DNA of 64,000 nt from Cyanidioschyzon merolae (Eukaryota), in the NCBI GenBank assembly GCA_000091205.1, contig AP006501.2. The stretch is one strand, 5' to 3'. Shown here in pieces: positions 820-37,030 of this stretch (its first letter is position 1; each line of letters begins with the position of its first letter). The notes under the pieces were generated by a model that did not search any database, was not told where the DNA came from, and saw nothing but the letters and a program-made list of their open reading frames with translations. The translations under genes were made by a program, and so were the position numbers.

Positions 820-1600
820 TCTATTTTGGCGTAGCTGTTGCAACGCTTTGCTGGTGGAATTCGTGACGACACTTGAATCAAGGTTCTTTCACGACACCCT
901 CGAGCAAGCGTTCGTAAAATTACCGATTTCATTATCCACGTAATACGTAAAAACCGCCGCTCTTCTCCGTTTCTTGTGCTGAGCAAGCTAAAATCACGCA
1001 TTCTTCATCTTGTCGATCTTTCTATTTCAGGGAACATGCGGGCGCAGCAATGCGCGCCGCTGGATTGACGAGGAGAAAAGCCCCACGCCCTTTGACTCCT
1101 TGTTCACGAACTCTTGCCAAAAGTTCCAAGATCTTGTTACGTTACAGCACCAATTTGATTCGTTAGGCAAATCCTACTATTTTTCGGGTCATCAACGGCA
1201 CTGCATTCGACAGCAGCGTAATATCGCCCACGGAATATGCTTTGAGATGCTCCAGTTCCTTTTATTTCCATGGAAAAAAGTTTTTTGCACTCGCACCTGA
1301 CTCACCGCAGCAATCGCTTCCATTGGAGAGTCCGTCACCGCTTTGGATGTGGAGAGCGCACACCGATCGAAGTTTTTCGAAGGATTCTCCACTCGGGATA
1401 TTCCTTTCGGTACGTGTCCCGTCATAGACAACATCGCGCCCCACAAATCCTCCATCGAATGGAACAGCGTGCGCTTCCTTATGTCACGGACAAAGCACTT
1501 GCCGTGGGAATCGGCCAGAAGAACCCCGTGATCGTAGCGTAGGCCACGGTGGCGGAAAAGGCGAAGGGTACTGAGGCGAGCCCCCGGTACCCTTCGCGGG
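820..1600 (+). repeat. Dispersed repeat family 1, copy A (about 700-780 bp, non-coding)
   Basis: The segment beginning ggtggaattcgtgacgacac...ccctcgagcaagcgttcgtaaaat aligns by eye with windows 26099-26800, 36230-37030 and the reverse complement of 11480-12228. It contains the near-identical 34-mer aaatcctccatcgaatggaacagcgtgcgcttcc at 1445-1478. No reading frame is conserved between copies. Confidence 0.55.
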
Positions 1601-2423
1601 CATGCATAGATCGATGAGGCAAGCGTTCGCGTGCCAAATGGCGATGCTCGGCGGAGAAGGCGTATGGGACATATGTGTACACCTGACTTCAGTCTCCCGT
1701 GTCACCTCGGCGGAAGTTGCACCGAGGCTGCCTTCAGAAAAGGAGAAAATGGTCAGCGAAATGTAGCTCACAACTTCGGCGCCTTCATGAATTGCGTGTA
1801 CAACAGCCTGAAACTTCGAAATATGGACTTGAGCACTGATAACAACTTTCGTCAACGGCTGACAACGGTGCCGGATACAAAGGAGAGACCGGCGTATTTA
1901 AAGCAGGATATAGTGGTGAGGAAAACGCAGCAGTCGCCGCAAAAACACGCAAATGCTGGTGTTGAATACAATGAGAAGAGCCCCATGCTTTCGAGTCTAT
2001 AACCGCGTCAGCGATCTGGAACCGTCCCAGTTCAGGCTGACCTAGGTCTGGGGATTTCCCGTACCGCCCGTGGCGCTTGGATGCGCACGCGCACGTCCAT
2101 CTGTGCGAGGCCTCGCCGCGTCGCCGTCGCCATCGTCGTCGACGACGACGATGATGGACATAGGTATCACATGCGCCGGCGCTTCGACATAACCTTGCAA
2201 AGCGTATTGTGAGGACTCCGGTTGAGAAAACTGACGTAGCATCCGGCGACGTTGAGCAGACGTGCGCCTGCCAAGAATTCGGGACTTCTGTTTACTGCAC
2301 ACTCTGTTATTGCACTCTGGATTTCCGTCAGCAAGGCGGAGCTAAAATACTGATCAGATTTTCTAGGACCTCCGCTGCGAACGACGACGCTGAGCACGCG
2401 AACGCCGGCGGCTGCGGGAAACG

Positions 2424-2906
2424 ATGGCGGAGCAGCACGATCTCGAGGTTTTGGCGACCGGTGATGCGGGAGCGTCTGATGTGACTCCGATTCAAGCCGG
2501 GGCGGTGAAGAAAGGCGTGTATGTTGTGTTGAAGGGGCAGCCCTGTAAGTGTGTGGATGTGAGCACCAGCAAAACCGGGAAACACGGACATGCCAAGGCC
2601 AATATCGTGGGCCTTGATATATTTACGGGCAAGAAATATGAGGATGTTGCACCAACGAGCCATACCATGTACCAACCAGTGGTGGTTCGTTCCGAGTACC
2701 AGCTAATCGACATCGACGCTGAAAACTTTTGCTCGCTGATGGACGACAAGGGTGAAACCCGTGAGGACCTCAAGCTCGACCCCGATAACGATCCCGTGCA
2801 TGCTAAAATCAAGGAAGACTTTGAAGCCGGGAAACAGCTGACAGTGGTTGTCCTCAAGGCGATGAAACAGGAAAAAATCATGCAGTCCAAGGAGCTGAAC
2901 GAGTGA
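2424..2906 (+). CDS. EIF5A: Eukaryotic translation initiation factor 5A (eIF-5A)
   Basis: The 160-aa ORF carries the hypusine-loop motif STSKTGKHGHAK and the conserved eIF5A SH3-like N-terminal and OB-fold C-terminal sequence (VGLDIFTGKKYED, YQLIDID). It is complete with ATG and stop, and no intron is needed. Confidence 0.95.
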   Translation: MAEQHDLEVLATGDAGASDVTPIQAGAVKKGVYVVLKGQPCKCVDVSTSKTGKHGHAKANIVGLDIFTGKKYEDVAPTSHTMYQPVVVRSEYQLIDIDAENFCSLMDDKGETREDLKLDPDNDPVHAKIKEDFEAGKQLTVVVLKAMKQEKIMQSKELNE

Positions 2907-4819
2907 GGGCGCAGTGCTCTCTCTGGATCGTTTCGGCACGGCGCGGGTGCCGCCTAGTGCGAGCCGGATCGCGTGCGAGCCATCTAGCGTCTAGATCGCC
3001 CAAAGAGCAGTACGACCCTAGAGCGTGCGAGCGTGCAGCGCCCCGAGCACCGTTTCTCAGTGCCCATGAACGAGGTTCTTACGTATCCGAGGCCTAAGCA
3101 GCCTAACAGCGAATCGAAAACAGCGGGCGGTTTGGAGGCGGCTCTGAATACTTCGTATAGCTGAGCTCACGGTTTTTCTGTGTCTATTAACTGGATGCTT
3201 TTCAGTAGAGGCCTAACCAGCGTCACGGCGAATAGGAGCAATCAGGCGATGTTCGTGGAGGCCTGGGATTCTCTAGTAGCCGATTCCGGGCGCGCCTGGA
3301 ACACCGCAAGGTTCAGTTCGAACATACATCCGTTAGACCCAGGACACTGCTCAGGAGCACGCGTTGATGTGGATGGAGCTGGTCCGTTCGGTTTGGAGCG
3401 CTTTCTCTGCCAAGATCTTATGGTTCTTTGGGGGCAGAACTCTCGCTCAGCAGCGTAAAAGGTACCGTAGCCGTTGTCGCCCTATCCAGATCGCACCAAC
3501 GATTTTTTCAATAAGTCTAAAACTCCAAGCATGCGACGCTGTGTTTCATATGCCGAGCTCGATCGGTTGCGATTCGAGTGAGAATGATCGTTGGCGTGCA
3601 GCTGCATAACGCTCGTGCCACCGAAGAACCGAAAGCATCCGCGTGCCTTGCGCGGTGACGAGGCAAGCCTAGCGCACTCGGCGGTACCGCCAACCCGCAC
3701 ACTTCGCTGCAGGTTTTCATCTAGTCAAGCGCGATGGTGTGTCGCTTGCGAAGCTGTGCACCTTGAGCACGTTCTGCAGCCGAATATGAAACGCTTCGAG
3801 CTGCAGCTCCATTCAATATCGACCACGTATCGACAGAGACGTCCAGTATCGCTCCATTTCCATGCAGCCTGCGTCTTGGGCGGAAGCTTTACAGACGCGT
3901 TTGTTCGGCACGAAGTTGACGGCATCATCGTTGAGCGCAGACATCGGATATCTGCGTACCTTCTCAGCCGTCCGCGGTCAAGGTATCCAACGGACTTTTG
4001 TTCAGAACGCCCATAGGGACCCGAGTTCGCGGAGTTTGCTGAAAAAAGCATGCACCAGGACAGCGATCTGAGATACCGTCTCGAGCATAGCCGACCAGAT
4101 GATGAATAAATTTGCAGCTGCTTACGCGTTCGATGCTCTTGGAAGGGAATAAACAGCACCTGCCCGAAAGCATAGTTGGAGCGCTGATACATATCGCGTT
4201 TTTCGCGCGCTCGCACACACACACACACCGTAGAAGCGGCAGAGCAGCAGCGCGTTCTCATTTGAAGACGCTGGAGAGCCCGCCAGCGCACCAGGGATCG
4301 TTCTTTGACCTCAGATACCGCATAACGCCGCACACCAGGAAAAGCATGCGCATCGAACGGAACCTGCGGTTCTAGATTGTTGCGCTTCAATGGACAACGA
4401 ACGATGCACGTTCTTCGCTATAATGCTTGGTACGCTGCCGCGCGGACAGTCAGACGTGCTTCGTATGGCTAAGGCGTCCTTCTTTCCTCAAGTTCGTCCC
4501 ATGGAGAGAGCACTTGTTGAACCGAGTTCCCGAGGCATGCAGACACCGCGTTGCTCTGGATAACAGAAAAAATTGCACACCGTAACACGCTTTCTCAGCT
4601 CCGTATCCTCAGTTGATGTCCGCTGGACAACGAAAGCATGTTACCGAAAAAGGTATGCCTCCCGCACTTGGATGGAACCGGCTGAATAACTTGGCAGCGT
4701 AGTCTCGTGTCTTCGTGCCGGCCGCGGCTGCTGCACTACCTGGGATCCATGCCGATGGCACATGATGCTGGCACTGCCAAGCAACTTGCCCCACAAGCGT
4801 TTTACACTGCCAGCGGCAG

Positions 4820-6475
4820 TTGGCGGCTTTCCTAGAACACTCAAACAGCAGTCTTAACTTGATCAGCAGCAGACAGCCAGAAGAAGGGCATCTATGGTCC
4901 ATGTTTCAGGTGCTTACCGGTACGAGTGTTGCAGGAAACAACGGCTGGCTGACAACCGACGTCGTTTCTGGTGTACCGCAGAGATCGCCGGCCTGGGGGG
5001 CGTACTCAGGTTCATGGCCTGCGCAGAAGCGCTCCTCTTTTGAAGCGCAAAGTCTCCATCTTCCGAGCTCCAATGAATACCGTCTAGAACCTTCGTGGTT
5101 CGGCGGCGGAGCCCGAAAACGAGCAGCCCAGCGGGGACGCTGCCCTAACTGCTACTCTCCGCAGCAAACTACACGCCAAAGTCCGCGTTGTGCAGTCTCC
5201 GACGAGACCTACATGGACCGCTGCATTCAACTGGCTTTAATGGCAAGGCCGTCCCCGAACCCCCCGGTCGGATGTGTGGTCGTCGACCCTGACACAGGTC
5301 GCATTGTCGGAGAGGGTTTCCATCCGCGTGCGGGCTACCCCCACGCGGAGCAATACGCCTTGCAGGCGACCTTTACAACGCTGAGGAACGCGTCATCGCA
5401 CCAAAACCAGCACCTGGCAGCGACTGTCTCTGAGCCCGTGGCCGCACTACCTGGCTCTGCACGAGGTATGCATGTTTACGTGACGCTCGAGCCGTGCAAC
5501 CATTACGGGAGAACGCCTCCCTGCACCGAGTCCCTGATCCAGGCACAGGTGTCGCGGGTTGTCATCGGTACACGAGATCCAGACCCCAGAACTGCTGGTT
5601 CCGGTGCGGAGCGTCTTCGACGAGCGGGTATCGAGGTGCAGTTTGGACCTCGCGCAGCCGAGTGCTTGAAACTCTACGAGGGCTTTCAGCATCGCATCCA
5701 CCATCAGACTCCACTTGGTATCCTCAAATACGCCATGAGTCTGGATGGTAAAATAGCGACGGAAACAGGGGATGCTCGATGGGTGAGTTCGGCGACCAGT
5801 CGACGGTATGTGCATGAGCTACGCGCTCGCTGTGATGCTGTTGTCGTCGGCGCTGGTACGGTACGTCGAGATGATCCCGCTCTGACGGTTCGTTTGGAGG
5901 AATCCATCGATGTACCTGAACTGGGATATGGCCAGCCCTTGCGTGTCGTCATGTGCACCAGCGCTGCACGATTGTGGCGAGATCGACCTGACGCAAAGCT
6001 CTGGGATACATCAGTGGCCCCGACGGTGCTTGCAGTGTCGTCTGCAGGTGAAGTTTCTTCCTCGAAGGAGCTCGATGCTGCTGAAAGAGAGGCGATTCTT
6101 GCGTTACGCTCTAGAGGTGTCCAGATTGCGTATCTGGATGCATTACTTCCCTTGCCGCCGACGCGGGCGCTAATGCAGTGGCTCTACGACTACGGCTGCA
6201 CCACGGTACTCTGGGAGTGTGGTGGTACCCTTGCGACGTCAGCGGTGCGCGAATCAGCTGTCCACAAAATACTTGTATTCGTAGCCCCAAAGCTCGTCGG
6301 GGGCAGGTCGAGCCCGACGCCGATTGCCGCTGATTTGGGTGTTCGCAACATGGAGGAAGCGCTCGCGCTACGACTTGGTCGGATGGAGGTCATCGGATCT
6401 GGGCAGGATGTGCTCATCGAGGCGTACCTCGACAGCAACAAGCTATCGCCCGATGCGGCTAGCGGCACTACTTGA
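4820..6475 (+). CDS. ribD: Bifunctional riboflavin biosynthesis protein RibD-like (pyrimidine deaminase plus reductase) with an N-terminal extension of about 120 aa
   Basis: The cytidine/dCMP deaminase zinc motifs HAEQYALQ and LEPCNHYGRTPPC are followed by a RibD C-terminal reductase-like region (ILKYAMSLDGKIA...GDARWVSS...VVVGAGTVRRDDP). The true start is uncertain, because the first roughly 120 aa are low-complexity and could be a targeting peptide. Confidence 0.85.
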   Translation: MAAFLEHSNSSLNLISSRQPEEGHLWSMFQVLTGTSVAGNNGWLTTDVVSGVPQRSPAWGAYSGSWPAQKRSSFEAQSLHLPSSNEYRLEPSWFGGGARKRAAQRGRCPNCYSPQQTTRQSPRCAVSDETYMDRCIQLALMARPSPNPPVGCVVVDPDTGRIVGEGFHPRAGYPHAEQYALQATFTTLRNASSHQNQHLAATVSEPVAALPGSARGMHVYVTLEPCNHYGRTPPCTESLIQAQVSRVVIGTRDPDPRTAGSGAERLRRAGIEVQFGPRAAECLKLYEGFQHRIHHQTPLGILKYAMSLDGKIATETGDARWVSSATSRRYVHELRARCDAVVVGAGTVRRDDPALTVRLEESIDVPELGYGQPLRVVMCTSAARLWRDRPDAKLWDTSVAPTVLAVSSAGEVSSSKELDAAEREAILALRSRGVQIAYLDALLPLPPTRALMQWLYDYGCTTVLWECGGTLATSAVRESAVHKILVFVAPKLVGGRSSPTPIAADLGVRNMEEALALRLGRMEVIGSGQDVLIEAYLDSNKLSPDAASGTT

Positions 6476-6840
6476 GTTGCGCATTCAAATGTTGTCGTGG
6501 TGTACATTTTGCGAAGCACGCCGCGTTGCAAACGGATAGCGGAATGACTTTTACGAGAAGTGCATTTTCGGATGGTGTTCACTCTACGCTGCAAACGGGC
6601 AACAAGCCATGTCGTGGAGCTGAGCAGCGTTTGCGGGTGGTTTCTACGCTCCGTCGTGCGCGGATAACGAAAGCATCGCTTAGGGCTGGTTTGCGTTCAT
6701 GAGCGGTTCCTCGAAGCACCGCAGAGCAGCGCGCTCCCTCTGCTAAAGCGTATCTGACCCGGCGAACAATGGTTCCACAGTGTTTTGGATGTGTGTGCAT
6801 TCTCTGTCCGCACCAGGAAAGGTGGTGCAACCTTGGAAGC

Positions 6841-7209: not shown

Positions 7210-7386
7210 AGACACACGTTTCGTCGTAGCTTTGCTTTTAAAGCGCCCTGCCCGACGCTTCTCTGTTGTGCGACCTTTAACGTTAACCTGTGCCCCGACT
7301 GCGGACACGTTAGAGTAAAAGCTTCAACGCGTTTATACTCGTACTTATAAAAGCACGTCCGTATCCAAACACGTACTTATGCGAGC

Positions 7387-10712: not shown

Positions 10713-11479
10713 CGGTACCGTCCGAGAACGATACGAGCTGAGACAGCATACCAGACCCGACTACGTCGTGCGTTTTTCAGCGGCACCTGAACGAACATGT
10801 TCCGTCTGAATATTTCACAAGTTGCTTAGCATACCGGAACTTGCTCAGGCAATAGCGTTACAGCAAAAGGTGCTGCAACGAAAGCGCAAGGTGTCATTAC
10901 CGTTTGGGGGGTGATACGGTTCGCAGGCACTTGCCAGAATACGCATACGCAATGTGGAATGGATACCCTCTGCCCCAGTGGCCAGTAGGGTATTTACGCT
11001 GCGTCTGTCGATACGCCCGTGTCAGTGGAAAGTAAAACAGGCTCCGATTTGCTCACTCGAGCGTGCACACACAAGCTTGTGTCCCGTTCCATTGTCATGA
11101 ACAGTAGCTTTTTTGGCTTTTTCTGCAAAAGCTTCGTTTTCCTCTCTCGCTCTCTCTCTCTCATTTCCGAACAGAAAAAAAAACGGCGGTCGAACCCGTG
11201 CTCTTAGACCCCTTATCAGCAGTCAAAGGATGCTGATTGCAGTATCCGAGTCCAAGGTCGCTGATTCCTGCTGCTGTCGAGGCAGTCATGCACAAAATGA
11301 GGTCGCGATCTATGCCTCGCTCGCAACGCTCATCTTCTTTTATTCGCAGACTCGAAGCGTTTTTCGCATCGGTGACACTTGACGATTATCAGGTGATCCG
11401 GTATGTCGACCACACGTCCTCGAGTTCGGAGGATCACCATGTCGCGCTTGGACGATTGCTTCATTGCTCGGTACATGCC

Positions 11480-12228
11480 CTTGACGAGTATGAAAAGCGC
11501 ACCTCCATGCCCGCCTGCGTTTCCACGATCGGTGCCGTACCCGAAGACCATGGCCTTCCTCTGGCAAGGCCTTCGGTGAGTACGGTTTCTGGTGAAGGTG
11601 CAAGCGCGTGCTGTCCCAATCGATGGAGGATTTATGAAACGCGATCCTGCCCAAGATGATGCACTTACCGGAAGTGGAATCTCGACAGGAGACCAAGTCA
11701 GGAGATTCCTATCTGCCAACGCTGCCTGCTTGCAAAGCGTTGACGTAGTGTTCACCGAAAGTGATCGATGCCACGATCGGGGTCTGAGTACCAGCCGTCT
11801 TTTTATGAAAATAGAAGAGACGGGAGCCTCTGAGTGCTTATCTCGTGGTACGGAGCATGCTGCTGTTGAAGGCGATTTTGGCAACGAGCACAAAAAGAGT
11901 AGAATTTGTGCTTCGAACGAAATCGGTTCCTTGTCGTGCCAAGCTTGGTGAAAAATCAACACGAGCATGTTCTAAGGCCGCAAAAAAATGACGTCGTGTT
12001 TTCTTCCTCGTCTATCCGGCTGCGGTAATAGCGACGCCGGCGAGTTGTCCATCAACAAGCTCGCCGAAAACTTGCAGAATGCGTGTTTCGACCATGCTAT
12101 ACGCAAGGAAAGAAGAAGAGTGAACGCTTGCACATATGCCTCAGATAATCGTGCAGGTTATTTTACGAATCTTTGTTGCGTGGCGTCGCGAATCATCCTG
12201 ATTCCGGTGACGCAACGAATTCCGGCAG
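11480..12228 (-). repeat. Dispersed repeat family 1, copy B (reverse orientation)
   Basis: The reverse complement of 12206-12225 is ccggaattcgttgcgtcacc, which matches copy D's ggtggaattcgttgcgtcacc exactly over 18 nt. The reverse complement of 11600-11633 is aaatcctccatcgattgggacagcacgcgcttgc (30/34 identity to copy A), and homology continues across the intervening sequence. Confidence 0.55.
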
Positions 12229-13458
12229 CAAAGCGTCGCGGGAGCCACTCCGAGTCGTCGATCGAGAATCCTAAAACTATGAAGGCATTCGGAAAATCCA
12301 TACTGCCGCAGCTCCAATGTCAAGACATTGCACCAAGGAAAGGTTCCGAATCAAAAACCTGAACGCTGGAACACAGCGAGCAGTTCAGTGTTCCAGTCGA
12401 GTCTGCTGGGGGCGGAGGACGCCCTTGCATCTATTGCTGCAAAATTATTGACGCAGAGAGTTACATCACATAACCTGCTAGGCAGAATGGGCTGCGAACC
12501 GGATGCGCACACGGGCCCAGTGCTTTGTGCACCTACGCCCTGGTAGATGCTAAGCAAACGTCCACGTCGCGAACCGGCAACGCATTTCATACAAGATCGC
12601 GAAGGAGAGGTGGCTCCCGGGACTCATCCCAACAACCAAGTTTCTCCAGCATGTGTTGCACCGAAGGCAAGCCTCTATCCGCTGAGTGATTCAACACGTA
12701 TCGACTTCGAGACCCGACTTTCTATCAGGTGCGGCACGACTCGAGCTGACGCCCCCTGTGGTATTGGGACGCCGTCCTGGCTCCATGCACGACTGGACCG
12801 GTGCTAGGGGCGCTATCGCGGACACGTGTGGCACACACGCAGCGCGCATGACTACCCGGAAAACTATCGGTAGCTCCGAGGGAAAGTGTAGCTAGTGGAA
12901 TTTGGTAGTAGAGCGTGGAACGATGGATGCCGCTCCGAGCGCGGGTATCAAGCGCGCATTCGGGCATCCCCGGTCTCAGTAACGGTTTCGTCAACTGAAA
13001 AAGTGCATATCACGGATCCTACGCTCGACCGGTGTTAAGGCGTCTGCGTCGGAGTTTTTGTTTTTGCTGTGATTCGCGGCAGTACTTGCACACTGCGTGG
13101 AGCCTTGTTCGATCAAATGCTCTTATGCCAATCCAAGGACAAAGGTTTTGCATATCTGCCAAGATCACCGGACGGAAACCTCTTCGATGTATCGCCCTTG
13201 CGCCGCAGAAAAGCGAAAGTGGTACGATACCGCAGCGTTCGTTGTGACACATAAAATACATAAATGAACTATTTGCTCCAGATTCGTGGATCTCTCGCGC
13301 CGCATCTGAATAAAAAAGCAGCCGCTGTCCACTGGCGCACGCTGGGTCATTCGCCCGCGCTCCACGCGCATGCGTCCAGCAAGCGGAAGGTACAAACGTT
13401 TCCAAAGTTTGCGCCAAGCGACGGGAGCCACGCCTCTTGATCGTTTTTTACGGGAAGT

Positions 13459-13857
13459 ATGGACGCTACATCAGCGACTTCTGGACATGCGACAGAAATC
13501 ACGTTACCAAGCGCCAAACAGCTGATAGTGAATACGCTGCGTCGCGCTTGGCGAACCCCAAGGACGCATCGCGCAAAAGCCTGCGTCTGGAAAGCGAAGG
13601 CTCAACGTCAGCGAACCTGGGCAGACAAAGAGGCGGATCGAGAACGTTTGCAAGCAGTAAAAAAGTTAGAGCGCAGCCTGAAGGAGAAGGCGCGGGCACA
13701 GCGGGCAGCTGAAGCAGAGCGAAGAGCCCAAATGCGCGCCGAACGTGAAGCCAACGCCCTCCGCACCGGCACGAAAGTGCAGATTGTGCGTGATTCGAAC
13801 AAGATCAAGCGCATGTCTAAAAAGCAGCAAAAATTGCTACGAAAGATGGCATTATAG
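13459..13857 (+). CDS. Cgr1/CCDC86-family small basic coiled-coil (nucleolar) protein
   Basis: The 132-aa ORF is highly basic with coiled-coil character. Its C-terminus TKVQIVRDSNKIKRMSKKQQKLLRKM matches the Cgr1/cyclon signature as recalled ([25 protein letters not shown]). Confidence 0.55.
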   Translation: MDATSATSGHATEITLPSAKQLIVNTLRRAWRTPRTHRAKACVWKAKAQRQRTWADKEADRERLQAVKKLERSLKEKARAQRAAEAERRAQMRAEREANALRTGTKVQIVRDSNKIKRMSKKQQKLLRKMAL

Positions 13858-18584: not shown

Positions 18585-18585
18585 C

Positions 18586-25825: not shown

Positions 25826-26098
25826 GGGCTTTCAAGGCGTACGCAATGGTCGAAAACGCTTCTACGAGGTTCGTGCTGATCGCGCCAAGCCTCTGAGATC
25901 CGCTTGGTCCAGACCCGTGCTGGATCCTAGTCGGACACTGAGCTGCTTGATCTGCGCTTGCCTAGAAACTTTTTCACGAGTTTTTATACATGTCCAGCGT
26001 TAACATTCTAAATGCAGTTGTAGGGGCCCAGGGATTCATAAACACTTTTGCGATTGCCCGTTCATCTTTTCGGAATGGCTCACTCGACGCCGTCTGCC

Positions 26099-26800
26099 CG
26101 GTGGAATTCGTTGCGTCACCGATATCAAGACCATTCAAGACGTCCTCGAACAAGGTTTCTTGATGTAACCGATATCGTTTTCCAACGCATACGTAGAAGC
26201 GTCAAATTCGTTTCTGTCAAGCTAGCCTGTTGACGTCGTGCGTTCTTCTAGTTTTCCACGTTTCTGTTTCGAGGCAACTCGTGGGCGCAGCTGTTCGCGC
26301 TCCTGAATTGACGAGAAAAAGACTTGACGTCGACCATTGATGAATTGTTCACGAGTTCACGCAGAAATTTTTCCCAAAATCTTCACGTCGAATAATCAAT
26401 TCCTTTCGAAAGAAAACCCCTTATCTTATCACGGCCATCGATGCAACCGCATTCCACAAAAGCACGATGCTGCTCACCTGGGATCGTACACCAGACGATC
26501 ATACCGCTTCGGATTGCATGGTAAATGGCCGCGGATTCGGACTCGAGTCATTGCAGTGATCGTCCGGATTGGACAGATGTCAATGCTTTGCACGAGGGAA
26601 GCGTAGATGGATCGTAATTTATCGATACGCTCCGTCTTCTCAATTCACCACTCTGTGCTTGTCTCATCACGAGTGATATAGCGGCGCTCAAATCTTCCTC
26701 TGTTCTGGAGAAAGGCAGATGACATGGGACTCGTTATCTTTTACATTCGAACGAATTCTCCACGGTTCAACCCGGTCGAGTAGTTCGGGGCCTTGAAAAA
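26099..26800 (+). repeat. Dispersed repeat family 1, copy D
   Basis: It begins ggtggaattcgttgcgtcacc. The internal block gggcgcagctgttcgcgctcctgaattgacgagaaaaag...ttgttcacgag aligns with copy A (gggcgcagcaatgcgcgccgctggattgacgaggagaaaag...ttgttcacgaa). It is more diverged toward the 3' end, so that boundary is approximate. Confidence 0.45.
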
Positions 26801-28456
26801 CAGCTCCCGAGAAGCAAATGTCGGATTTGGATATCTTGGATCTGCCTCGACACGAACTGGTACTCGAGACTTGTGGCGCCGCAGTGGCGGCCATCTGACT
26901 CGCAGGGGCTACTTGCGCAAAAATTGTTTCCCTATTCGGATAGGGGATTCTTGCAGGGGCCGTAAGAAACGGGAAGACCACACAGTCAAGAATAAATATG
27001 CTTTGCCTGTTGCTCATCGGAGGAACACGCCCGAAGCGCGCCAGGTATGGCAGAGAGACCATCATGCAAGTGCAAACCGATATCCTGGCGCGTTTCCAGT
27101 GTAGTTGCGTGCCGCTCCCGGAGAACCTCGCTATTCTCGGATGGAACGCCCTCCTGGAAGAAGGTCATCGCTTGGACATCGTCTCGGATGAGAAGCTCTG
27201 TTTAACGCTGTTGCACGACGCATCGATTGTAGAGAGAAACCCGAGAATACACATACACTTGCCGGAACGCAAAGCCCGCATCCCAAAAATACGCACTGCT
27301 CTGTAGCAAGCTGAACAACGAGGTTACTTCACGCGTAACCTCCTGCTCTTTCTGTGTATCGTTGAGCTTTGGAACCTGTATGCGATCATTCAATCTCTGC
27401 TGTTTGCTCTTTTTCCGAATACAAGAGCATCTGTGGCGCGCGTTGTCGCCAGATAAGGAATACGCAGCGGAAAGAGACCCCAGTCTGGCGAACAAGTACC
27501 GCAATTTGGATCCGTCTACGCTCCATTCATGCAAAGTTCTGAGGGAATCTCCAATGAAAACGATCGCCGTGGTGACTCAAGTCCCAGCCCAAAGCCGTTT
27601 CTAATGCAAACAACGACTACGGGAGCCAATGGGAACGTATCCCGTGCGAGGCAACACGCTGCTGTCGAATGCTCTTTCGCCGATGCCCACAAAGAGAGGC
27701 GGATGTGACTTGCGAACGAAGTCGATTCTTTGGTGTAACAAGTTTGGTGCAATTTTGGCATGAACTCGTGAGGAACTCGGCAATGGTCGGCACTGAGCTT
27801 CTTTCGCTCGTCAGAATGCCGGCCGGAATTGCTGCACCTGCCACTTGCCCCGAGACGAAAACAACGCATCTAGGAAGCATGCGTGATTGAAGCCTGCCTT
27901 CCGCAAGAAAACGAATCGAATGCCAATGCATACGCATTTGCGAATGATATCGCTTATGGTACGAACCGTTCTTCGAGCGCGTCACGCATCATGTTGATTC
28001 CAGTGAGGTACCGAATTCAAGTGTCATAGATTCAACGATGCCGTTTCGCAAAAACAACCGAGAACCTTTATACTACGTCTGCACCCGTAACCTCGTATTG
28101 TTGCCCTGTGCTTGTCGAGACTGGACGTCTGAAAAATGATCCGAAAATGAGTCATACGGCAGGGAGCGTATGAGCTGTTCCGTGGACCATTCGATTCGGA
28201 GAGCGCATTTACGCGGTGGATGCGGCAGCCGTGAGTCTTTGCCTTTTAGAACAATAGGAGCACAAGCGGACATGAGCCTGGGCGCAACGCCCCGAGCCGC
28301 CGCCTGCGGGATCCGCGGCGGCGGGAACGTCCGCTTTCGGAAAGCGCGGGAACACGGCGACCTCGAACGACGAAGCGGCTAGCGCGCACAGCCAGCACAC
28401 GACAAGCCGCACTGCATTGTTCCGCAAGTGCACACACTCCTACGACGTTCGGAAAT

Positions 28457-29680
28457 ATGACGGGGGCACTGCGGTATCGAGCACTGGCTCGAGTCATAGA
28501 ACGCTGTCTGGGCTCGCGTGCGCTCGGCGAGAGCGGCTCAGCAGCTGCAGTCAGCAACTATGTCTGGCAGCGCGAAGCATCACGGGGTTTCGTGTTAGGG
28601 ACGCGCCTGCTGCCGTGGTGCCCGCTAGGGTCGCGTTTACTGCACAGTCCATCACAGACAGCGTCAGTTATCAGGATGAATACCGGTTCGTTTGCACCTA
28701 AACCCGATTTGGGTGAACAACAACCAAACACTCTGACGGGGCAGCCACGTATCATGGTCGTTGGGGTTGGCGGCGCCGGTGGAAACGCAGTCAACAACAT
28801 GATCGCGTCTTCACTGCCCGGGGTCGAGTTCCTCGTCGCGAATACAGACGCACAAGCGCTGAAAATGAGCTTATGTCCTAACCGTATCCAGTTAGGTGCA
28901 AGCCTAACTGAGGGGCTCGGCGCGGGCGCTCGACCCGATATTGGACGAGCCGCAGCAGAGGAAGCGTATGAGACGCTCAAGCGAGAGTTCCGAGGCGTAC
29001 ACTTACTGTTCGTCACTGCCGGCATGGGTGGGGGCACCGGCACTGGCGCTGCGCCCATCATTGCACGAGCAGCCGCAGAGCTCGGTTGCCTGACGGTTGC
29101 CGTCGTCACGAAACCGTTCCATTTTGAGGGCATGATCCGAATGAAAACAGCCGAGCAAGGCATCGTCGAGCTCACAGAACATGTCGATACGATGCTGGTC
29201 ATCCCGAACCAGAATCTCTTCAAAGTCGCCTCGCCGCGCACTAGCTTCCTGGATGCATTCCGCCTCGCCGATCACGTGCTCTACTCTGGTGTTCGTTCGA
29301 TTACAGACCTGATGACGGTACCAGGCCTGATCAATTTGGATTTCGCTGATGTTCGCAGTGTTGTTAGGGAAATGGGACGAGCCATGATGGGATCCGGTGA
29401 GGTCGAGATGGAGGCCGGCAACGAAGAACGCGCCATTCGCGCGAGTGAAGCGGCTATCTGTAACCCGCTGCTCGACGAGACCTCCTTACGCGGCGCTCGC
29501 GGGGTGCTTGTGAACATTACCGGTGGTACGGACATGACGCTTTTTGAGATAGATGCTGCAGCGAATCGAATTCGAGAACAGGTCGATCCCGATGCGAACA
29601 TTATTTTCGGATCGGCTTTCGATGCTTCGATGCAGGGGAGGCTTCGCGTCAGTGTTCTCGCGACCGGCATTCCATCCTGA
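28457..29680 (+). CDS. ftsZ: FtsZ, alpha-proteobacterial/mitochondrial type, with N-terminal presequence
   Basis: Tubulin/FtsZ GTPase motifs are present: [51 protein letters not shown] (TGTG variant), [15 protein letters not shown] and [12 protein letters not shown]. About 90 aa of Arg/Ala/Leu-rich N-terminal extension precedes the core, and the protein ends immediately after the core domain. Confidence 0.9.
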
Positions 29681-30584: not shown

Positions 30585-32417
30585 TCAGAACCTGAACAAG
30601 GGTAGTGAACTATCCACTTCGTTCCAGTTCTTGCTCTCGAACAGATCCTGAACTGTGCGACGTTTGGGCTGGGGTTGGAAAACCTGCGCCGTCCACGTAC
30701 CGTGCAGTCCCATGGGAAGAAACGTTCGTAGGGGCACTTTGCAAACGAGCTTGAGATCCGAGGCATCAAGAATGACCAAGTATGTGCTCCGATGCAACCC
30801 GTCACTGACCACACTGAGTATGTAACCGTCATCTTCCGCTGATTCCTTATCAGGTTCGATCAAGCGGGGCGCAAAAACTGGTTCCCCAGCGAATTCGTAG
30901 ACCGATGGCGGTTGCCACGTAGCTAGCGTCTGGCCGGTGTCGGCGTCGACCTTGATGATGTTCTTGAGAGGGCCTGGCTCCGTGCCAAGTGCGCTTGCCC
31001 CCATGTACACATAGCGATACGGCTGCGTAAGGCGGCTCGGGTTCACCACCGGAAAGTCAACGTGCGTCGTATTCACCTCACGCCAGGTTGCGCGCTGCGT
31101 TCCGCTGCCGCTGCGAGTCGGTATGCGACAGCGCCAAAGGCTGCACTTGGGAACTTGGGTCCCAAAATCGACTGCCTCCACGACACGCTGCGTGCGCGAC
31201 AATCCGTTTCGATGGCGACGAGTCTCTCCCAGGAACAACCGATCCATTCGACAAGCGTCAAGAACAACAGCGTCGTCGTCGTCGTCGTCGTAGGCGTTCA
31301 CAAAATGGAACGCTGTGCAGGTCTCACTCAGAACCTCACGCACAGGTGCACCCGGGTCGTCGCGAGGTATCAGCAGCAAACGCGTCGGCATTCGATCCCC
31401 TTCCCAGGTAATACACTCTCCTGGACACTTGAGTCCGAGCACGAAAGGAAGCGGATGGAAGCGCAGTGGCGCCTGCAGCAAAATATAGTAACGCTGCGTG
31501 ATCATAAAATCGTGGAAGAAACCAAATCCATCAATGTCCACCGTTCGTTCCGAGCATAGCTTCCAATTCTCTGATGCGAATTCCAAAAACCGGATCCGTA
31601 ACCCATTCAAATGCATCCGAGAGGAGAACCCCACGAGGCGTCCCCGGCGAAGTGGATCGACGTGCGGGTGTGCGGTGAACATCGGCATGGGGCCGGTGAG
31701 CGTCCCCCCGAGCCTGAAGACGCCCTTCGTTTCGAGCGTATCAGGGCGCAGCTCATAGGGCAGGCCGCCTTCGTACAAGGCAAGCAACTGGTTCGCGTGG
31801 TAGATCACGTTTGTGTTGGCGAGATTCTTTTGCTCAAGGCGGAACGCGTTGGTCACGATTCCACCCGGCAGCGGTGTAGCAAAAGTGCCGCGGTAGAGCT
31901 GATAGCCGGCGCGACGCTCTTTTAAGTAGCCCTCTGTTCGAACAAAACGATTGCGGAACCATACTGTTCCGTCTCCGCGCAGCGTGAACGCTGCAACGGC
32001 TCCATCACCTTCCCAGGGATGAAGCATTCGTCGAGAGCCAATGGTGAACTTGGATGGACCGTTTCGATACAGGGTGCCGACGAGGTCATGAGGAAGGTCG
32101 GGTAAGTCCAGTACGTAGGAGTCCTCCTCGTTCATATCGCCGTGCGCTAGCTCCCAGGATCGACGATCGAAAGCACTCAGCGACTGTGTTTTACCTGGTG
32201 CCGAGGTTAGCTGGCCCTGTTCACGAACCGTGTTGGTCGCTCCGCTTTCCTGGGAACTCAGATGTGTCGCACCGCCGCTGCGAGCAGGCCGAAGGCTTCT
32301 TCTCTTCAGTCTGCCACATTGGAAAGTAGCGGTGGCGTTCACACTAGCGCCCTTCCAGTGCCTGAGTGCACCGTTGCCGACCACGAAGGCAGTCTTATCT
32401 CCAGGATGCAAATTCAT
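30585..32417 (-). CDS. Carotenoid cleavage oxygenase (RPE65/CCD family)
   Basis: The 610-aa ORF spans the whole family. It has a conserved His-containing ladder (HPHVDP, FFHDFMITQRYYIL, HFVNAYDD, HGTW) and includes an acidic DDDDDD insertion. Confidence 0.85.
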   Translation of the reverse strand: MNLHPGDKTAFVVGNGALRHWKGASVNATATFQCGRLKRRSLRPARSGGATHLSSQESGATNTVREQGQLTSAPGKTQSLSAFDRRSWELAHGDMNEEDSYVLDLPDLPHDLVGTLYRNGPSKFTIGSRRMLHPWEGDGAVAAFTLRGDGTVWFRNRFVRTEGYLKERRAGYQLYRGTFATPLPGGIVTNAFRLEQKNLANTNVIYHANQLLALYEGGLPYELRPDTLETKGVFRLGGTLTGPMPMFTAHPHVDPLRRGRLVGFSSRMHLNGLRIRFLEFASENWKLCSERTVDIDGFGFFHDFMITQRYYILLQAPLRFHPLPFVLGLKCPGECITWEGDRMPTRLLLIPRDDPGAPVREVLSETCTAFHFVNAYDDDDDDAVVLDACRMDRLFLGETRRHRNGLSRTQRVVEAVDFGTQVPKCSLWRCRIPTRSGSGTQRATWREVNTTHVDFPVVNPSRLTQPYRYVYMGASALGTEPGPLKNIIKVDADTGQTLATWQPPSVYEFAGEPVFAPRLIEPDKESAEDDGYILSVVSDGLHRSTYLVILDASDLKLVCKVPLRTFLPMGLHGTWTAQVFQPQPKRRTVQDLFESKNWNEVDSSLPLFRF

Positions 32418-33753
32418 ACTGCAATGATATTATACGAGTTTAATCACTGGACCAACGAGTCCTCAAACGTCGTATAGTGGCCTGCGCACGAGTCCCTTCG
32501 ATGCTGTAGCGGGAACATGCGCGTGATAGAATGGACTACGAGTCAGAGGTATGCATTTGCTCGAAGGATCGATCACAGGATGCAGGGGCGATTTGTACAA
32601 ACCCTTCCAGACCTAACATTTCTGTATATCATAGAACAAGCGTCACGCACGGGCATCCCGCATATGCGAAACGCGCAGCGGCGGCCTATAACCTCATTGC
32701 GGGCGATGCTTGATGACCCACGATGTGCGTGTCTCGAATGGGATTTTCCCAGGAGATGCCGTCCATATCGGTTCTTGGAGGCGAGATACCTCCTCTTCAG
32801 CAGACAATTCTGCATTCTACTGCCGCAGAACCGGTCTTCTCGTAGGGGATAGTTGTTCGGTGCATCCAAAGGTCCACCTAGCGCCCAGGCATGCGTAGGC
32901 GATTGCTGTACCACCGTCGCGGTCGCTGACTTCAGCCAGTGCGGCTTCGCGGTGCCTTGAGAGCCCGCACTGCGTTCTATTCTCGGGCACGAGCATTGCA
33001 CCGCACTCAATGCCCGTGGACGCGCGAACGCTGCCGATAATTTTCTACTGGATTCGCGTATCGCTTAGAATACACGCTCTGATTTTTTCCATATCGCAAA
33101 CGATCGCCTCCATGAAGCAACTTTGTCGCTCACGAAGCATCCGAAAGTGACCGTTCCTAACATGCCTTCGATAATCCTGCTCAAGATCAAGTACGGCTTG
33201 AGGAAGCGAGCGGCGCGAACGCCTTTCGATGCCTCGCGCGTACGCACATGATCCCTTCCTATCTGCGCAAGATCGATGAATCTGGACAAAACTCCTCACG
33301 GACACGACGATCGAAAAAGACGTGCACACAGTCTCAAGTTTCTCGATACGCGCACGCATCTGCAGGCCATGATCACGTAATCGGAACGCTTGCACTTTCT
33401 TCACTGTGTTTCCCCTGCCCTCATGTATTCCATGCCCTGAGATCGCGTGCTTCGTCATCGCATGCCGCGCATCCCCATGAGGTATCCGGATGCTGCGCTG
33501 CTGCATTCCCCCGAGGGGGCTTTTCCTCTCCATTCGCTGCCTGATGCAGAACTAGCGTGCGTCATTGAGACTGCACCAGAACCTTGCCTTCCCCGCACGG
33601 AAACAAGTCGTCGACATATGTTATCGGTATGCAACGCGAGATGGTCTATATCGTCTTGAGCAAGAAACACCGTACATAAAGCGAGCAAATTCGAACACGA
33701 TTTCCATGATACCCAGCGACGATCGTTGAGCGAGCGCGCGGGGCGCCACACCT

Positions 33754-35607
33754 GTGGATCTGGTAGTAGTGTCGGTACCCGCGCTGCAGGTAACGTTTCG
33801 TGTACCCAAACTGCAGACTGAGGACCTTGTTTCCAAAGCTTTTCTCATAATGTGGGTTGTACCTGGCAGTTTTAGGGCACGACGATGCGACGGTTTTGGT
33901 GTAGAATGGACCTGGTCTGTTGATCGGGCCTGTGCAACAGTTCCGTGCTCGAGCCTGAGGCGACCGCGACCACGACAGGGCGCTACGGTGCGGCGAGAGC
34001 GAAACTGGAGTCAAAAGCCGTGTGGCGTCCCGGGCAACACAGTGGTGAGAGTCTCTTGCCATATAGGGCAAAGTTCGAGTAATGACGAGGGTGGCACTGG
34101 AGAGCCTCTGGTGCACAGCAGTGGCGAACAGGCGTGGCAGCGTCGTGCGCTCTCCAGCACCGGTACAAAGGACGCGGAGCTCGACGCTAATGAGCTGGAT
34201 GACGGCCTCTGGGGTATTGTTTCTCAGCTGCCAGTCAAGCGCATTCTCATCTGGGCTGCGTTCTGCTGGCTCGTGTACCTTTGTCGCCCGTTCATGGGTG
34301 TGTTATTCGGTACGTTCGTCGTCTCGTACGTCGGGGTCTCTTTTTGCCAATGGGGCACACGTTTTCTCCAGCGGTTCGGTATCCAGGCTGCCCGCCGTGT
34401 CATTGTTGGCGTCTACTACAGCGGCATCGCTTTGTTCATCACGACGATGAGCCTGTTGACGATCCCGCGGATCATCAAAGAGGGCCAGTACTTTGTGGGC
34501 ATCATACGGAGTAGCAATCCATACGTATGGATCGCGGATACCATGCGACGAGCCCTGGGTGATGAACTCTCTGCCAAGGTGGAGGCCTTGGTGCTCTCAG
34601 AGGGTTATGCTGAGCTTGCAGACCAAGACACCGGGTCGAGTGCTGGCCAGAGCCCGTCCACAAACGGAGCCGAGACTTCCGAAAGCACAAACGAGGCTTC
34701 TCCGGGGCCGGTGCAAGTCCGCATACCGCATCGCGGCAGCGCAGCAGATGCCAAGGCGGAACGAGCCCCTGGCATCGCTGCCGGTCCGCTAGCGACCATG
34801 AATGCACCGGCAGAGTGGACAGAGGAGCGATCGAGACGACTCGGTTTGATCATCCAAAAGTCACTTTCGCGTTATGTGAATCGTTTCGCCTCCATCGTCA
34901 GCAGGATTTTGAGCAACAGCACAAAAATCATTGTGAAAGTACTGCTTTCCCTGGTGTTCTCATTCCTGATCGTCTGGGATCTGCCATCTGTGGCTGCTGG
35001 CCTGCGTTCTCTTCGCCGCTCCCGACTGCGGGCAGCGTACTTGGAACTGGCGCCGGCCATTGGTGAGTTCTGCGCCCTCCTCGGCCGTTCATTCGAAGCA
35101 CAGTCGATTATTGCGCTTGTGAACACGACGTTGACAACGATTGGCATGGGGATTCTCGGGTTACCGGGTATTGGCTTTCTCTCTCTTCTCTGCTTGATAT
35201 GCTCTTTTATTCCGCTTTTCGGGATTCTGCTCAGCACACTGCCGATGTGTGTCGTCGCGCTGACGGAATACGGGCCAATGCGTGCATTCGCCGTCGTGGT
35301 TATGGTTGCAATTGTTCACCTGATTGAGGCCTATTTCCTGAATCCACAAATCTACAGCGCTCATCTCAAGCTGCCGCCCTTGGTTGTTCTTATGGTTCTG
35401 TACATTGGCGAGCATGCAGGTGGCGTCATGGGTCTTATTCTTGCAGTGCCGCTGACGGTTTATTTGTTGCGATGGATCTATGATATTCCAGAAACGAAGG
35501 AACGTTCTGCGTACGTGAGCTCTATGCGAGCGACCAGCTCGAATGGCAGAGAAGAGCCAAGCGAAGACGTGACGATCACGCGCCAGCAGCAGCAGCAGCA
35601 GCAATAG
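33754..35607 (+). CDS. AI-2E family transporter (PF01594/UPF0118-like) with a long N-terminal extension and C-terminal polyQ tail
   Basis: The C-terminal block CSFIPLFGILLSTLPMCVVALTEYGP...HLIEAYFLNPQIYSAHLKLPPLVVLMVLYIGEHAGGVMGLILAVPLTVYLL fits the AI-2E consensus as recalled (fIP.iG...P......v...E.n.l.P...g....l.P..v..s.......G..G..lavPl). Multiple TM helices are predicted, and the protein ends QQQQQQQ, encoded by (CAG)n. Confidence 0.7.
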   Translation: MDLVVVSVPALQVTFRVPKLQTEDLVSKAFLIMWVVPGSFRARRCDGFGVEWTWSVDRACATVPCSSLRRPRPRQGATVRRERNWSQKPCGVPGNTVVRVSCHIGQSSSNDEGGTGEPLVHSSGEQAWQRRALSSTGTKDAELDANELDDGLWGIVSQLPVKRILIWAAFCWLVYLCRPFMGVLFGTFVVSYVGVSFCQWGTRFLQRFGIQAARRVIVGVYYSGIALFITTMSLLTIPRIIKEGQYFVGIIRSSNPYVWIADTMRRALGDELSAKVEALVLSEGYAELADQDTGSSAGQSPSTNGAETSESTNEASPGPVQVRIPHRGSAADAKAERAPGIAAGPLATMNAPAEWTEERSRRLGLIIQKSLSRYVNRFASIVSRILSNSTKIIVKVLLSLVFSFLIVWDLPSVAAGLRSLRRSRLRAAYLELAPAIGEFCALLGRSFEAQSIIALVNTTLTTIGMGILGLPGIGFLSLLCLICSFIPLFGILLSTLPMCVVALTEYGPMRAFAVVVMVAIVHLIEAYFLNPQIYSAHLKLPPLVVLMVLYIGEHAGGVMGLILAVPLTVYLLRWIYDIPETKERSAYVSSMRATSSNGREEPSEDVTITRQQQQQQQ

Positions 35608-35790
35608 CATCAGCAATGACGACAGTAGCAATAGCTACGGTAACAATAGCTGGGGCAAGGGCGTCAGGCAGCACCTGCTGGAAATATCCAGGAGACCTCT
35701 CTCGAATCACTTCGCAACAGCAGCAGCAGTAGTAGCATTGATAACGACAGTACCAGTAGTAGTAGCAGCAGCAGCAGCAGCTATGACTGG
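35584..35790. repeat. Imperfect CAG/CAA/TAG trinucleotide repeat region (two roughly 60-bp related blocks)
   Basis: The first block is cagcagcagcagcagcagcaatagcatcagcaatgacgacagtagcaatagc and the second is cagcagcagcagtagtagcattgataacgacagtaccagtagtagtagcagcagcagcagcagc. The first block encodes the transporter's polyQ C-terminus and stop. Confidence 0.8.
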
Positions 35791-36229
35791 GGCGCGGACG
35801 TCGAAGCGCTCCTGCTCGGAGTATCCGGATATCGATCCCGCCAGTGATGCGCTTCTTTGCACCATGAGCGCGCGTGGCAACCAGCTGTGCACAAGAGAGG
35901 AAAGTGCACCCATAACGAGCGCTTGCGTGCTCAGAGGCGTGCGCTTTTCGGTGGTGAGCACAGCGTGGTCCCAAACCTGCACCGAAGCTGGGGTGCTCTC
36001 TGTGATCTGGTTTCTGCAATTTTGGGTCGGGGCAAAGCCCAGATACCCTAAAGCCCACTGGGATTAGAATGGAACACTGAGTTGCTTGCTCTGTTTTAGT
36101 CTTTCGATTTCTTTCCGGGGTCTTTTCAGATGTGGAGCTTATTTATTCGAAGCTTGGCAGTAGGAGCTTACGGATGCGCACGTCGGCATCGGATTCTTGG
36201 TCGTCTTCTCCAAATGACTAATTCGACCA

Positions 36230-37030
36230 TTTGCTGCTTGAATTCCTTACGGCACAGGGGTAAAGATGCTCTGTGACGCCCTCGAGCAAAGCTTCGAATC
36301 ATAATCGATATTATCGCCCTTTGCGTATGTTCATGTCTGTACGCTTCTCCTTTCTTAGCGTATGGCATGCGAAAGTCGTGCATTCCTCAATTCCTCAACC
36401 TTTCTGTTTGAAGCCGACCTGTGCACACTGCAATTCGCACGCTTCCATGAACGTGGAAATTACTCGACGTCGAGCCTTGACGACCGGTTCACAAGCACAT
36501 GCCCAACGCTCACTGAACTCGACGTACGATTCTAGAATCGATTCAATTTTGGGTGGCAAATCAGCCGCGCGCTGTGGCTATCGACGAACCGACATGGAGC
36601 AACTGGTCGACACCTCTCACGGTACGTGCTGCAAGAGGCTTCCGTCTCTTCTGTTTGCACGAAAACTGGTCTCGGACATCCACTTCAGTTATCACAGCGA
36701 TCGCTTCCAGCGCAGCGTGCAGCAACGCTTGACAAGAAGCGAGCCTAGCCGGATCGAATTTTCTCGATTTGTTCTCCAAACTGGATATAACTTTCCATGC
36801 TTGCTGCATCAACGACAGCACCCGATGCCGCATATCACCCATCGAATGGAACAGAGTGCACTTGTGTGCGCACTGGAAAGAGCTCTCTCCTGGCGAATCG
36901 CCCAGCGGATGCCCGTATTCGTGGGGTACGTACGGCACTGGGTGCTACGCATCCAGACTTGGCTTGTGCTCGAGTCCGGCGTTCGAGCAGGACACAGCAG
37001 GTATCCGCTGCTGGTTACCGAGGGTACTCC
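36230..37030 (+). repeat. Dispersed repeat family 1, copy C
   Basis: The segment gacgccctcgagcaaagcttcg...attatcgccc aligns with copy A (gacaccctcgagcaagcgttcg...attatccacg). The core cccatcgaatggaacagagtgcacttgtg lies at 36847-36875, and homology continues to about 37030. The 307-aa ORF 36273-37196 inside it is probably fortuitous, because the other copies are frame-broken. Confidence 0.55.

Follow-up and report, generated by a model that had tools for sequence, protein, structure and literature searches.

A dispersed repeat family of Cyanidioschyzon merolae is very probably a decayed, internally deleted Mariner-type transposon with a Fanzor relic

Introduction

Two kinds of described element are among those closest to the repeat family examined here, which is dispersed over a 64,000-nucleotide stretch of Cyanidioschyzon merolae DNA (contig AP006501.2; henceforth referred to as 'the window') that is part of chromosome 19 of strain 10D. 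One is CMe-1A, or TE-N2_CMe, the sole Fanzor family listed for C. merolae, an unclassified element of 3,169 bp and ~150 copies that lacks terminal inverted repeats (TIRs), encodes a Fanzor1 protein of 734 amino acids (aa) and is ~80% identical to its consensus (Bao and Jurka 2013, PMC3627910). The same authors list one Fanzor1 in white spot syndrome virus (WSSV) (PMC3627910), and Nozaki et al. 2007 had reported 253 copies of a novel 3.2-kb element with an open reading frame (ORF) weakly similar to WSSV wsv486 (PMC1955436); this WSV486-like element is very probably CMe-1A. The other kind comprises the Mariner-type Fanzor1 elements PUl-1, PUl-2, PUl-4 and PGv-1, in which a Tc1/mariner transposase gene is followed by Fanzor1 and which have TIRs of 24-33 nt, a TA target duplication, a length of ~3.3-3.8 kb and only 1-8 copies (PMC3627910).

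Repeats are a prominent feature of the Cyanidioschyzon genome. They make up 25.9% of it, as opposed to 3.2% in Cyanidiococcus, and their expansion has doubled intergenic regions to 1,890 bp from the 930 bp of Cyanidiococcus (PMC9812998, Supplementary Dataset 4); what Cho et al. term 'LTR elements' (LTR, long terminal repeat) account for 1,930 copies and 2.09 Mb in C. merolae vs 52 copies in Cyanidiococcus (PMC9812998). Rudenko and Korotkov 2024 published consensus strings for 20 diverged C. merolae repeat families, of which families 11, 13 and 15 have 1,687-2,202 members and coincide with Ensembl Plants RepeatMasker features labelled LTR/Copia and LTR/Gypsy (PMC11050394).

A preliminary description of the window reported a non-coding repeat of ~700 bp in four copies, each upstream of and co-oriented with a gene, and offered as explanations a solo LTR, a non-autonomous transposable element, a regulatory module or a structured non-coding RNA (ncRNA). 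Here we present evidence that makes it highly probable that the second of these options is correct, and that the copies are a decayed non-autonomous class II transposon of Tc1/mariner-IS630 type, namely an internally deleted Mariner-type Fanzor element.

Results

Seven copies of one family in the window

The similarity among the four intervals of the preliminary description is real (E values of 1e-40 to below 1e-100 by self-BLASTN and nhmmer), and the sequence blocks and the 34-mer that it quoted were found where it had placed them. When copy boundaries were determined by nhmmer with a full-length family model, and also by a repeat scan and self-BLASTN, the four named copies (A-D) were recovered together with three that had been missed (E, G and F), bringing the total in the window to seven:

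664-2051, plus strand: copy A, full length (1,388 bp); TIRs at 664-691 (5') and 2024-2051 (3')
1445-1478, plus strand: the 34-mer of the preliminary description, within copy A
11011-12417, minus strand: copy B, full length (1,407 bp), model positions 4-1386 at window 12414-11012
25909-26696, plus strand: copy C, 5' part only, model positions 8-788, E 7.9e-119
27424-28211, minus strand: copy E, 5' part only, model positions 20-790, E 3e-113
36048-36945, plus strand: copy D, 5' part, model positions 15-891, E 4.4e-140
55151-55404, minus strand: copy F, first ~250 bp only, model positions 3-253, E 2.1e-32
63319-63796, minus strand: copy G, first ~470 bp only, model positions 15-473, E 1.6e-64

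Copy A aligns over model positions 2-1385 at window 665-2049 (E = 0, nhmmer) and is 76% identical to the family consensus; copy B is 73% identical, and its 3' end reads CTGACACGGGCGTAT. The seven copies occupy ~6.0 kb, or 9% of the 64 kb, at a density of about one per 9 kb. Copies C and E form an inverted pair (25909-28211) around 727 bp of unrelated DNA and are cut at nearly the same model position (788 and 790, respectively); the pair could be either a rearrangement or a derivative with two 5' ends.

Copies from elsewhere in the genome were collected by scanning metagenome contigs with the degenerate motif TGAYNYYGGTGACGNNACGAATTCC, taken from the best-conserved block of the family. This yielded 38 loci, all of them in samples that also contained C. 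merolae-like contigs; six represent the window region, and the rest fall into 11 new genomic places that amount to 144 kb of non-redundant sequence. In viral contigs, the conserved motif had no match. Pooling the seven window copies with 19 from the C. merolae-like metagenome contigs provided a set of 26 non-redundant copies for the analyses below.

A discrete unit of ~1.4 kb with terminal inverted repeats

Homology among the better-preserved copies extends over ~1.3-1.45 kb and ends on either side. Twelve copies have both ends, and in ten of these the length is 1,319-1,407 bp, with a consensus of 1,385 bp; of the other two, one carries an internal deletion and one a 1.3-kb unique insertion. 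The latter (locus L024, 2,494 bp) was considered as a less-deleted intermediate and rejected, its extra 1.3 kb being unique and non-coding. The unit is thus ~1,385 bp and not ~700 bp as had been proposed, copies A and B being full length, and no two copies share sequence outside the element ends.

The TIR escaped a blastn-short search of single copies and was recovered only after the ends of many copies had been stacked in register. The 5' consensus (20 ends) then reads CTGCACCCGTGTCAGATTAAAATGGAAC and the 3' consensus (14 ends), as its reverse complement, CTACACCCGTGTCAGAATAAAATGGAAC; the two match at 26 of 28 positions, whereas the next-best register reaches ~40%. Inverted repeats at both ends together with a discrete unit length are what a class II element would show. 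The TG...CA ends for which the preliminary description had recommended looking are not those of the family, whose termini read CTRCACCC...GGGTGYAG. An early interpretation as a 5'-truncated long interspersed nuclear element (LINE), which would have one common and one variable end, was abandoned in view of the two fixed ends and the TIR.

At positions 2-3 of the ends, TA occurs in 4 of 20 5' ends and 5 of 14 3' ends (9/34 in all, as compared to a genomic TA frequency of 3%), and a further 8/34 ends have TG there. The outer TA may be a target-site duplication that flanks a repeat of ~25 nt starting with CA.

The consensus contains relics of a transposase gene and a Fanzor gene

A consensus was built from 10 full-length copies and then from the 26 non-redundant copies, and it regains long open stretches; the domains described below came to light only in these two consensuses. 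The 5' part, in frame +1 from nt 83 to ~835, comprises ~250 N-terminal codons with a single stop and reads MYSLDIRSAAIRAYG...FVAIDETAFD...IMDNIAFHKS..., that is, the helix-turn-helix region of a transposase and its DDE_3 domain up to the second catalytic Asp (consensus nt 758). DDE_3 (PF13358) is matched by residues 175-272 of frame +1 at E 3e-10 (40.6 bits, cut-off 28.6), and weak matches to HTH_Tnp_Tc3_2 and HTH_33 lie upstream of it; a DDE_3 domain with an N-terminal helix-turn-helix is the make-up of a transposase of the Tc1/mariner-IS630 type. As the match covers profile positions 3-103 of 146 and the third catalytic residue is missing, this part is a relic and not a working enzyme.

A second, Fanzor-like part follows. 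It joins the transposase relic out of frame and occupies frame +0 from nt ~832 to a stop at 1327 (~165 C-terminal codons), reading ...KKPVIVGYGTGRGNGGGHRGEPSVPVKGMYRAMKQAF...VVDIWEHLTIVKCHRCEG...CLCMKCVDNSRKQRNRDLNAAINILRLL..., with a RuvC-II region, a CxxC...CxxC zinc ribbon and an RDLNAAINI motif. Cas12f1-like_TNB (PF07282, formerly OrfB_Zn_ribbon) is matched with a score of 27.1 bits (cut-off 26.3). TnpB and Fanzor proteins are defined by a motif near the C-terminus, [TS][TS]-x-x-[C4 zinc finger]-x(5,50)-RD (PMC3627910), and the consensus carries ...EHLTIVKCHRC...CLCMKC...RNRDLNAAINI at this place. A complete RuvC domain, with its first Asp 125-275 residues upstream, and the N-terminal half of the protein are not present, the sequence upstream being transposase-derived; the family contains a Fanzor fragment, not a Fanzor gene. 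A Pfam scan of the consensus returned no gag, protease, reverse transcriptase (RT), RNase H or integrase match.

Translated in the frame of the ancestral transposase, the 34-mer reads ...KSSIEWNSVR... and directly follows the second catalytic Asp motif (IMDNIAFHKS); likewise, the conserved blocks noticed in the preliminary description correspond to the helix-turn-helix region of the transposase and to the stretch after the second catalytic Asp. In the single copies this ancestry is no longer legible. Mismatches between copies show no 3-base periodicity, tblastx between copies prefers no frame and scores alike in all of them, and the region of copy A (window 1-2423) gave no transposon-related Pfam match in six frames, only chance-level E values of 0.05-0.3 below the cut-offs, because single copies are too decayed. 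Overall, these results indicate that the copies are now non-coding. The earlier verdicts 'non-coding' and 'not a protein gene family' therefore hold for each present copy; the former does not hold for the ancestor, whose consensus encodes recognisable protein domains, and the latter overlooks the pseudogenised fragments of two protein genes.

Relatives of the two relics

The nearest intact relative of the transposase relic is a 307-aa DDE_3 protein (P0023), which shares 31% identity over 98% of the query and opens with the same MYSLD..R..AIR..Y as the consensus. Both ENA ERZ1426603 (3,273 bp) and ERZ1426850 encode P0023 together with a second, 636-aa protein. Its gene lies at 110-1033 of the 3,273-bp contig and is followed on the same strand, at 1126-3036, by the gene for this 636-aa PF07282 protein, which by gene order appears to be the two-gene layout predicted for the parent of the family. 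If such an element lost its final ~45 transposase codons, the spacer and ~470 codons at the start of its Fanzor gene, ~1.4 kb would remain.

A profile of the Fanzor relic, run against 1.8 billion representative proteins, retrieved 340. Ten of the longer homologues (551-798 aa) were scanned against Pfam and matched only PF07282, mostly near the C-terminus, with 5/10 reaching the cut-off. The relic aligns to CMe-1, the published Fanzor1 protein of C. merolae, at 25% identity over 130 residues (pairwise E 1e-5); judged by this alignment, it is a Fanzor of a lineage other than CMe-1. A search of PDB sequences with the relic returned only a chance antibody match.

Several candidates for a parental Fanzor gene were set aside. 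A match at 13.8-14.2 kb of locus L042 is a diverged CMe-1 copy, and two others (L052 and a fragment in L051) are on AT-rich contigs of other organisms with no adjacent transposase. L052 (ENA ERZ27265933, 2,977 bp, 32.5% GC), which comes from a hot-spring sample of the same kind, encodes an intact 756-aa Fanzor whose C-terminus is 45% identical to the relic, and L051 (44.7% GC) carries a related C-terminal Fanzor fragment beside a Prim-Pol-like gene.

Age, constraint and lineage distribution

Individual copies are 70-79% identical to the consensus (mean ~74%; mean Kimura two-parameter distance 0.33), and transitions are about as frequent as transversions, which points to one old burst followed by neutral decay. 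Among the window copies, pairwise identity in the first alignment is 52-63% and star-like, with no clearly closest pair and very few indels.

Many hot-spring metagenomes contain contigs nearly identical (~99%) to the window. In nine such contigs, covering 27 kb of it, the fraction of polymorphic sites was 0.0197 for the copies, 0.0166 for intergenic DNA outside them and 0.0076 for coding sequence; hence no purifying selection on the copies was seen across these 27 kb.

The corresponding loci of the sister genus lack the family altogether: 20 kb of syntenic Cyanidiococcus yangmingshanensis sequence (L005 and L006) retains the gene order eIF5A, RibD, DUF1294, eIF3h, a 138-aa gene, glyoxalase and SPT16 and contains no copy. 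The spacers that bear copies A and B measure 2.9 and 4.3 kb in C. merolae and 1.0 and 1.6 kb in Cyanidiococcus, which fits the reported repeat-driven intergenic expansion in Cyanidioschyzon.

The family in published repeat sets

That the preliminary description recognised no known element family is understandable, yet the family is already present in published consensus sets and in the Ensembl repeat masking. Family 15 of Rudenko and Korotkov matches all seven window copies (E 1e-20 to 1e-30), family 11 the same seven in the opposite orientation, and family 13 copies A-E in their 3' parts; outside the copies, none of the three has a match in the window. By these matches, the window family is their families 11, 13 and 15, and the repeat family itself is not new. 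Their example alignment pairs chr20:961243-961817 (LTR/Copia) with chr20:1165384-1165865 (LTR/Gypsy) (PMC11050394); it includes the region of the 34-mer, with its best window matches at 1431-1458 and 11620-11645. Motifs of the family are essentially absent from their hard-masked genome, and the repeats that they list for chromosomes 1 and 2 contain them.

Copy density in the window agrees with ~1,900 copies genome-wide and with the member counts of these three families, and by number and mean length the family agrees with the 1,930 'LTR' copies of Cho et al., with which it may well be identical. Our limited literature search found no assignment of the family to class II or to Fanzor elements. 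This Tc1/mariner and Fanzor assignment, with the correction of the LTR label, is a modest addition to a known family.

Contacts with CMe-1A

The window family is not CMe-1A itself: CMe-1A DNA and protein queries match elsewhere in the window and in the other loci but not in the family copies, and nhmmer found no DNA-level similarity between the two. Relics of CMe-1A do occur close by. Two CMe-1A 3' fragments, 70% identical to each other, occupy 39289-39881 and 54468-55059 (minus strand; tblastn to CMe-1 residues 664-720 and 672-725), and the one at 54468-55059 adjoins copy F at 92 bp. Window 12473-12784, 55 bp beyond the 5' end of copy B, matches Rudenko-Korotkov family 12 (E 1e-10), a consensus that corresponds in reverse complement to the 5' region of CMe-1A. 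Three metagenome loci (L016 ~4364-4613, L049 ~11237-11579 and L043 ~12834-13542) have the same neighbours. In two of them the 3' TIR of the family lies within ~25-45 nt of the stop-codon end of CMe-1A, tail to tail, and in the third both the family copy and CMe-1A are truncated. These contacts may reflect chance in repeat-dense spacers or a target preference. When the flanks of two-ended copies were tested as the halves of a split CMe-1A (empty sites), only one flank ever matched.

Genes and ORFs around the copies

The identity of the window was established from exact matches of its eIF5A ORF (2424-2906) and FtsZ1-1 ORF (28457-29680) to the C. merolae 10D proteins BAM82931 and BAM82940, respectively. 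The eIF5A start codon (2424) lies 373 bp beyond the end of copy A, which, like C and D, is upstream of a plus-strand ORF in the same orientation; E and G face the 3' ends of neighbouring genes, and F is followed by the CMe-1A relic. The next gene shares the orientation of the copy in about 4/7 cases, as expected by chance, so that the proposed rule of a co-oriented gene downstream of each copy does not survive.

The supposed F-box gene after copy C is a 102-aa ORF (26998-27306), enclosed by copies C and E and called as a gene in 4/5 strains, in which a Pfam scan found no domain. A 307-aa ORF (36273-37196) spans most of copy D, has a junk-like composition and no Pfam match, and is a chance ORF that is broken in other strains, as gene callers give only 231, 200 or 93 aa at its position there. 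Elsewhere in the window, a 132-bp unit is tandemly duplicated at 42666-42935 (98% identity, spacing 138 bp), and CAG/GCA trinucleotide runs at 35580-35800, 40049-40073, 45073-45119 and 48008-48081 are apparently within long ORFs.

Discussion

Taken together, the terminal inverted repeats, the discrete unit of 1,385 bp and the two relics, arranged and oriented like the genes of described two-gene elements, make it very likely that the window copies are a decayed, non-autonomous derivative of a Mariner-type Fanzor element. The ancestor would have been an element of ~3 kb with a transposase gene followed by a Fanzor gene, from which ~1.7 kb was lost internally to leave a defective product with both ends retained. 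This product could then have been mobilised in trans by the transposase of its parent and, in one old burst after the split from Cyanidiococcus, have given rise to roughly 1,000 copies or more in the Cyanidioschyzon lineage, which would have decayed neutrally since. The family shows no sign of present function: its copies retain only ~74% identity to the consensus, vary between strains at an intergenic level, are absent from the syntenic Cyanidiococcus locus and have no real link to gene orientation.

Several observations weigh against this account. The TA seen in 9/34 ends is ambiguous as a duplication, a palindromic TA being inseparable from an extension of the inverted repeat, and a search for duplications outside the CTR...YAG ends (k=2-10, several offsets, permutation null) gave none with z>2. 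The PF07282 match barely exceeds its cut-off, and one position of the first [TS][TS] site is Ile in the consensus (T-I). Public annotation labels copies of the family LTR/Copia or LTR/Gypsy. The P0023 contig is likened to the parent through its proteins and gene order, not through its element ends. No autonomous parent with the same inverted repeats was found in ~208 kb of C. merolae-type sequence, and two word-indexed protein searches returned only fragmentary ORFs of decayed copies and the distant P0023; the parent is either rare or extinct. Finally, the last 230 nt of the consensus (the untranslated end and the final ~170 nt of the Fanzor-like frame) show no significant fold (z = -1.56, with 10/200 shuffles as good as the consensus), so that there is no evidence for a retained guide-RNA gene.

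The annotation label raises the alternative that the copies are solo LTRs or other fragments of LTR retrotransposons, with which the Ensembl Plants RepeatMasker classes, the 1,930 LTR-class copies (2.09 Mb) of Cho et al. and the occurrence of short terminal inverted repeats in LTRs too would agree. We consider this very unlikely, given that the inverted repeat is 28 nt long and has no TG start or CA end, that no 4-6-bp duplication was detected, and that the consensus is made of DDE_3 and Fanzor relics without any retroelement domain. None of the 26 copies forms a direct-orientation pair around retroelement genes, and the genome paper reported no LTR retrotransposons in C. merolae (PMC1955436). 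One family that bears both the Copia and the Gypsy label suggests an unreliable library entry, and the LTR label in public annotation is probably wrong. An origin by local segmental duplication of an intergenic segment, without transposition, is the least probable of the alternatives. Seven copies within 64 kb are what it would lead one to expect, and for C and E it may hold, their shared truncation point suggesting that at least one pair arose by duplication or rearrangement; the remaining facts contradict it, as copies occur at 11 other genomic places and are put on chromosomes 1, 2 and 20 by published lists, the same two termini recur throughout between unrelated flanks, and divergence is star-like rather than nested.

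Two further alternatives would give the copies a function. A promoter-proximal regulatory module, or an exapted element that supplies promoters or start sites, would explain why the copies are intergenic and why A, C and D are co-oriented upstream of plus-strand ORFs. We nevertheless give it very little credence: copies E, G and F break the pattern, the copies are no less polymorphic than the intergenic DNA around them, the Cyanidiococcus orthologues of eIF5A and of the eIF3h neighbourhood lack an upstream copy, and the points of truncation are arbitrary. A family of structured ncRNA genes, including Fanzor guide-RNA (omega/fRNA) genes retained at the 3' ends, seems slightly more remote still. 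Fanzor and TnpB systems encode their guide RNA at the 3' gene end and the transposon end, and by this general biology the deletion derivative would have kept exactly the guide-RNA-encoding part; C. merolae repeats have also been reported to be transcribed, though this concerned the WSV486-like element and not the window family (PMC1955436). Opposed to this, an Rfam search of the whole window gave no family at its gathering score, the 3' 230 nt fold no better than shuffles, the copies decay at a neutral rate, and the C. merolae-type sequence examined yielded no intact Fanzor of the lineage to make use of such RNAs.

If the account of an internally deleted Mariner-type Fanzor element is right, the C. 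merolae LTR/Copia and LTR/Gypsy tracks appear to represent a class II, Mariner-type family with a Fanzor relic. This would revise what is stated about the transposons of a model genome that has long been called almost transposon-free and LTR-less, and would add a second, extinct Fanzor lineage to a genome for which one is listed. The family would account for most of the intergenic doubling relative to Cyanidiococcus and, for anyone choosing neutral integration sites or promoters, its 1.4-kb blocks would be dispensable junk and not regulatory DNA. A bolder extension, which we think improbable, holds that the most abundant repeat of C. merolae (~10% of the DNA), the 'simplest' free-living eukaryotic genome, is an undescribed Mariner-Fanzor derivative that owes its success to the kept Fanzor 3' end, with its guide-RNA region, beside the transposon end, and that the contacts with CMe-1A reflect targeting between two Fanzor-bearing families; if true, an RNA-guided nuclease would be tied to how a cut-and-paste element multiplies or is maintained.

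How the family compares with known systems can be stated as follows. The Rudenko-Korotkov families are 600-nt windows of the element, treated as separate families on either strand, without termini, class or coding content, and discussed as possible nucleosome-positioning sequences; the class label of Ensembl (LTR) conflicts with the TIR and DDE_3 evidence. CMe-1A resides in the same genome and is likewise an old interspersed family with Fanzor1 sequence, but it has neither TIRs nor the CxxC pair, both of which the window family possesses. The Mariner-type Fanzor1 elements resemble the window family in TIR length, perhaps in the TA at the ends, and in the order and shared strand of the two genes, which the window family has as relics; the window family differs from them in being deleted internally to 1.385 kb, in having neither gene intact and in having on the order of at least 1,000 copies. 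A typical miniature inverted-repeat transposable element is usually <800 bp and without coding capacity; at 1,385 bp, nearly all of it taken up by the two gene relics, the window family is better regarded as a deletion derivative, whose parent was not found. Such derivatives can outnumber their parent DNA transposons, as do Ds, derived from Ac, and MADE1, derived from Hsmar1. Like these, the window family retains both ends and has lost the middle of the coding region and, in the history proposed here, it would have been mobilised in trans and amplified far beyond its parent.

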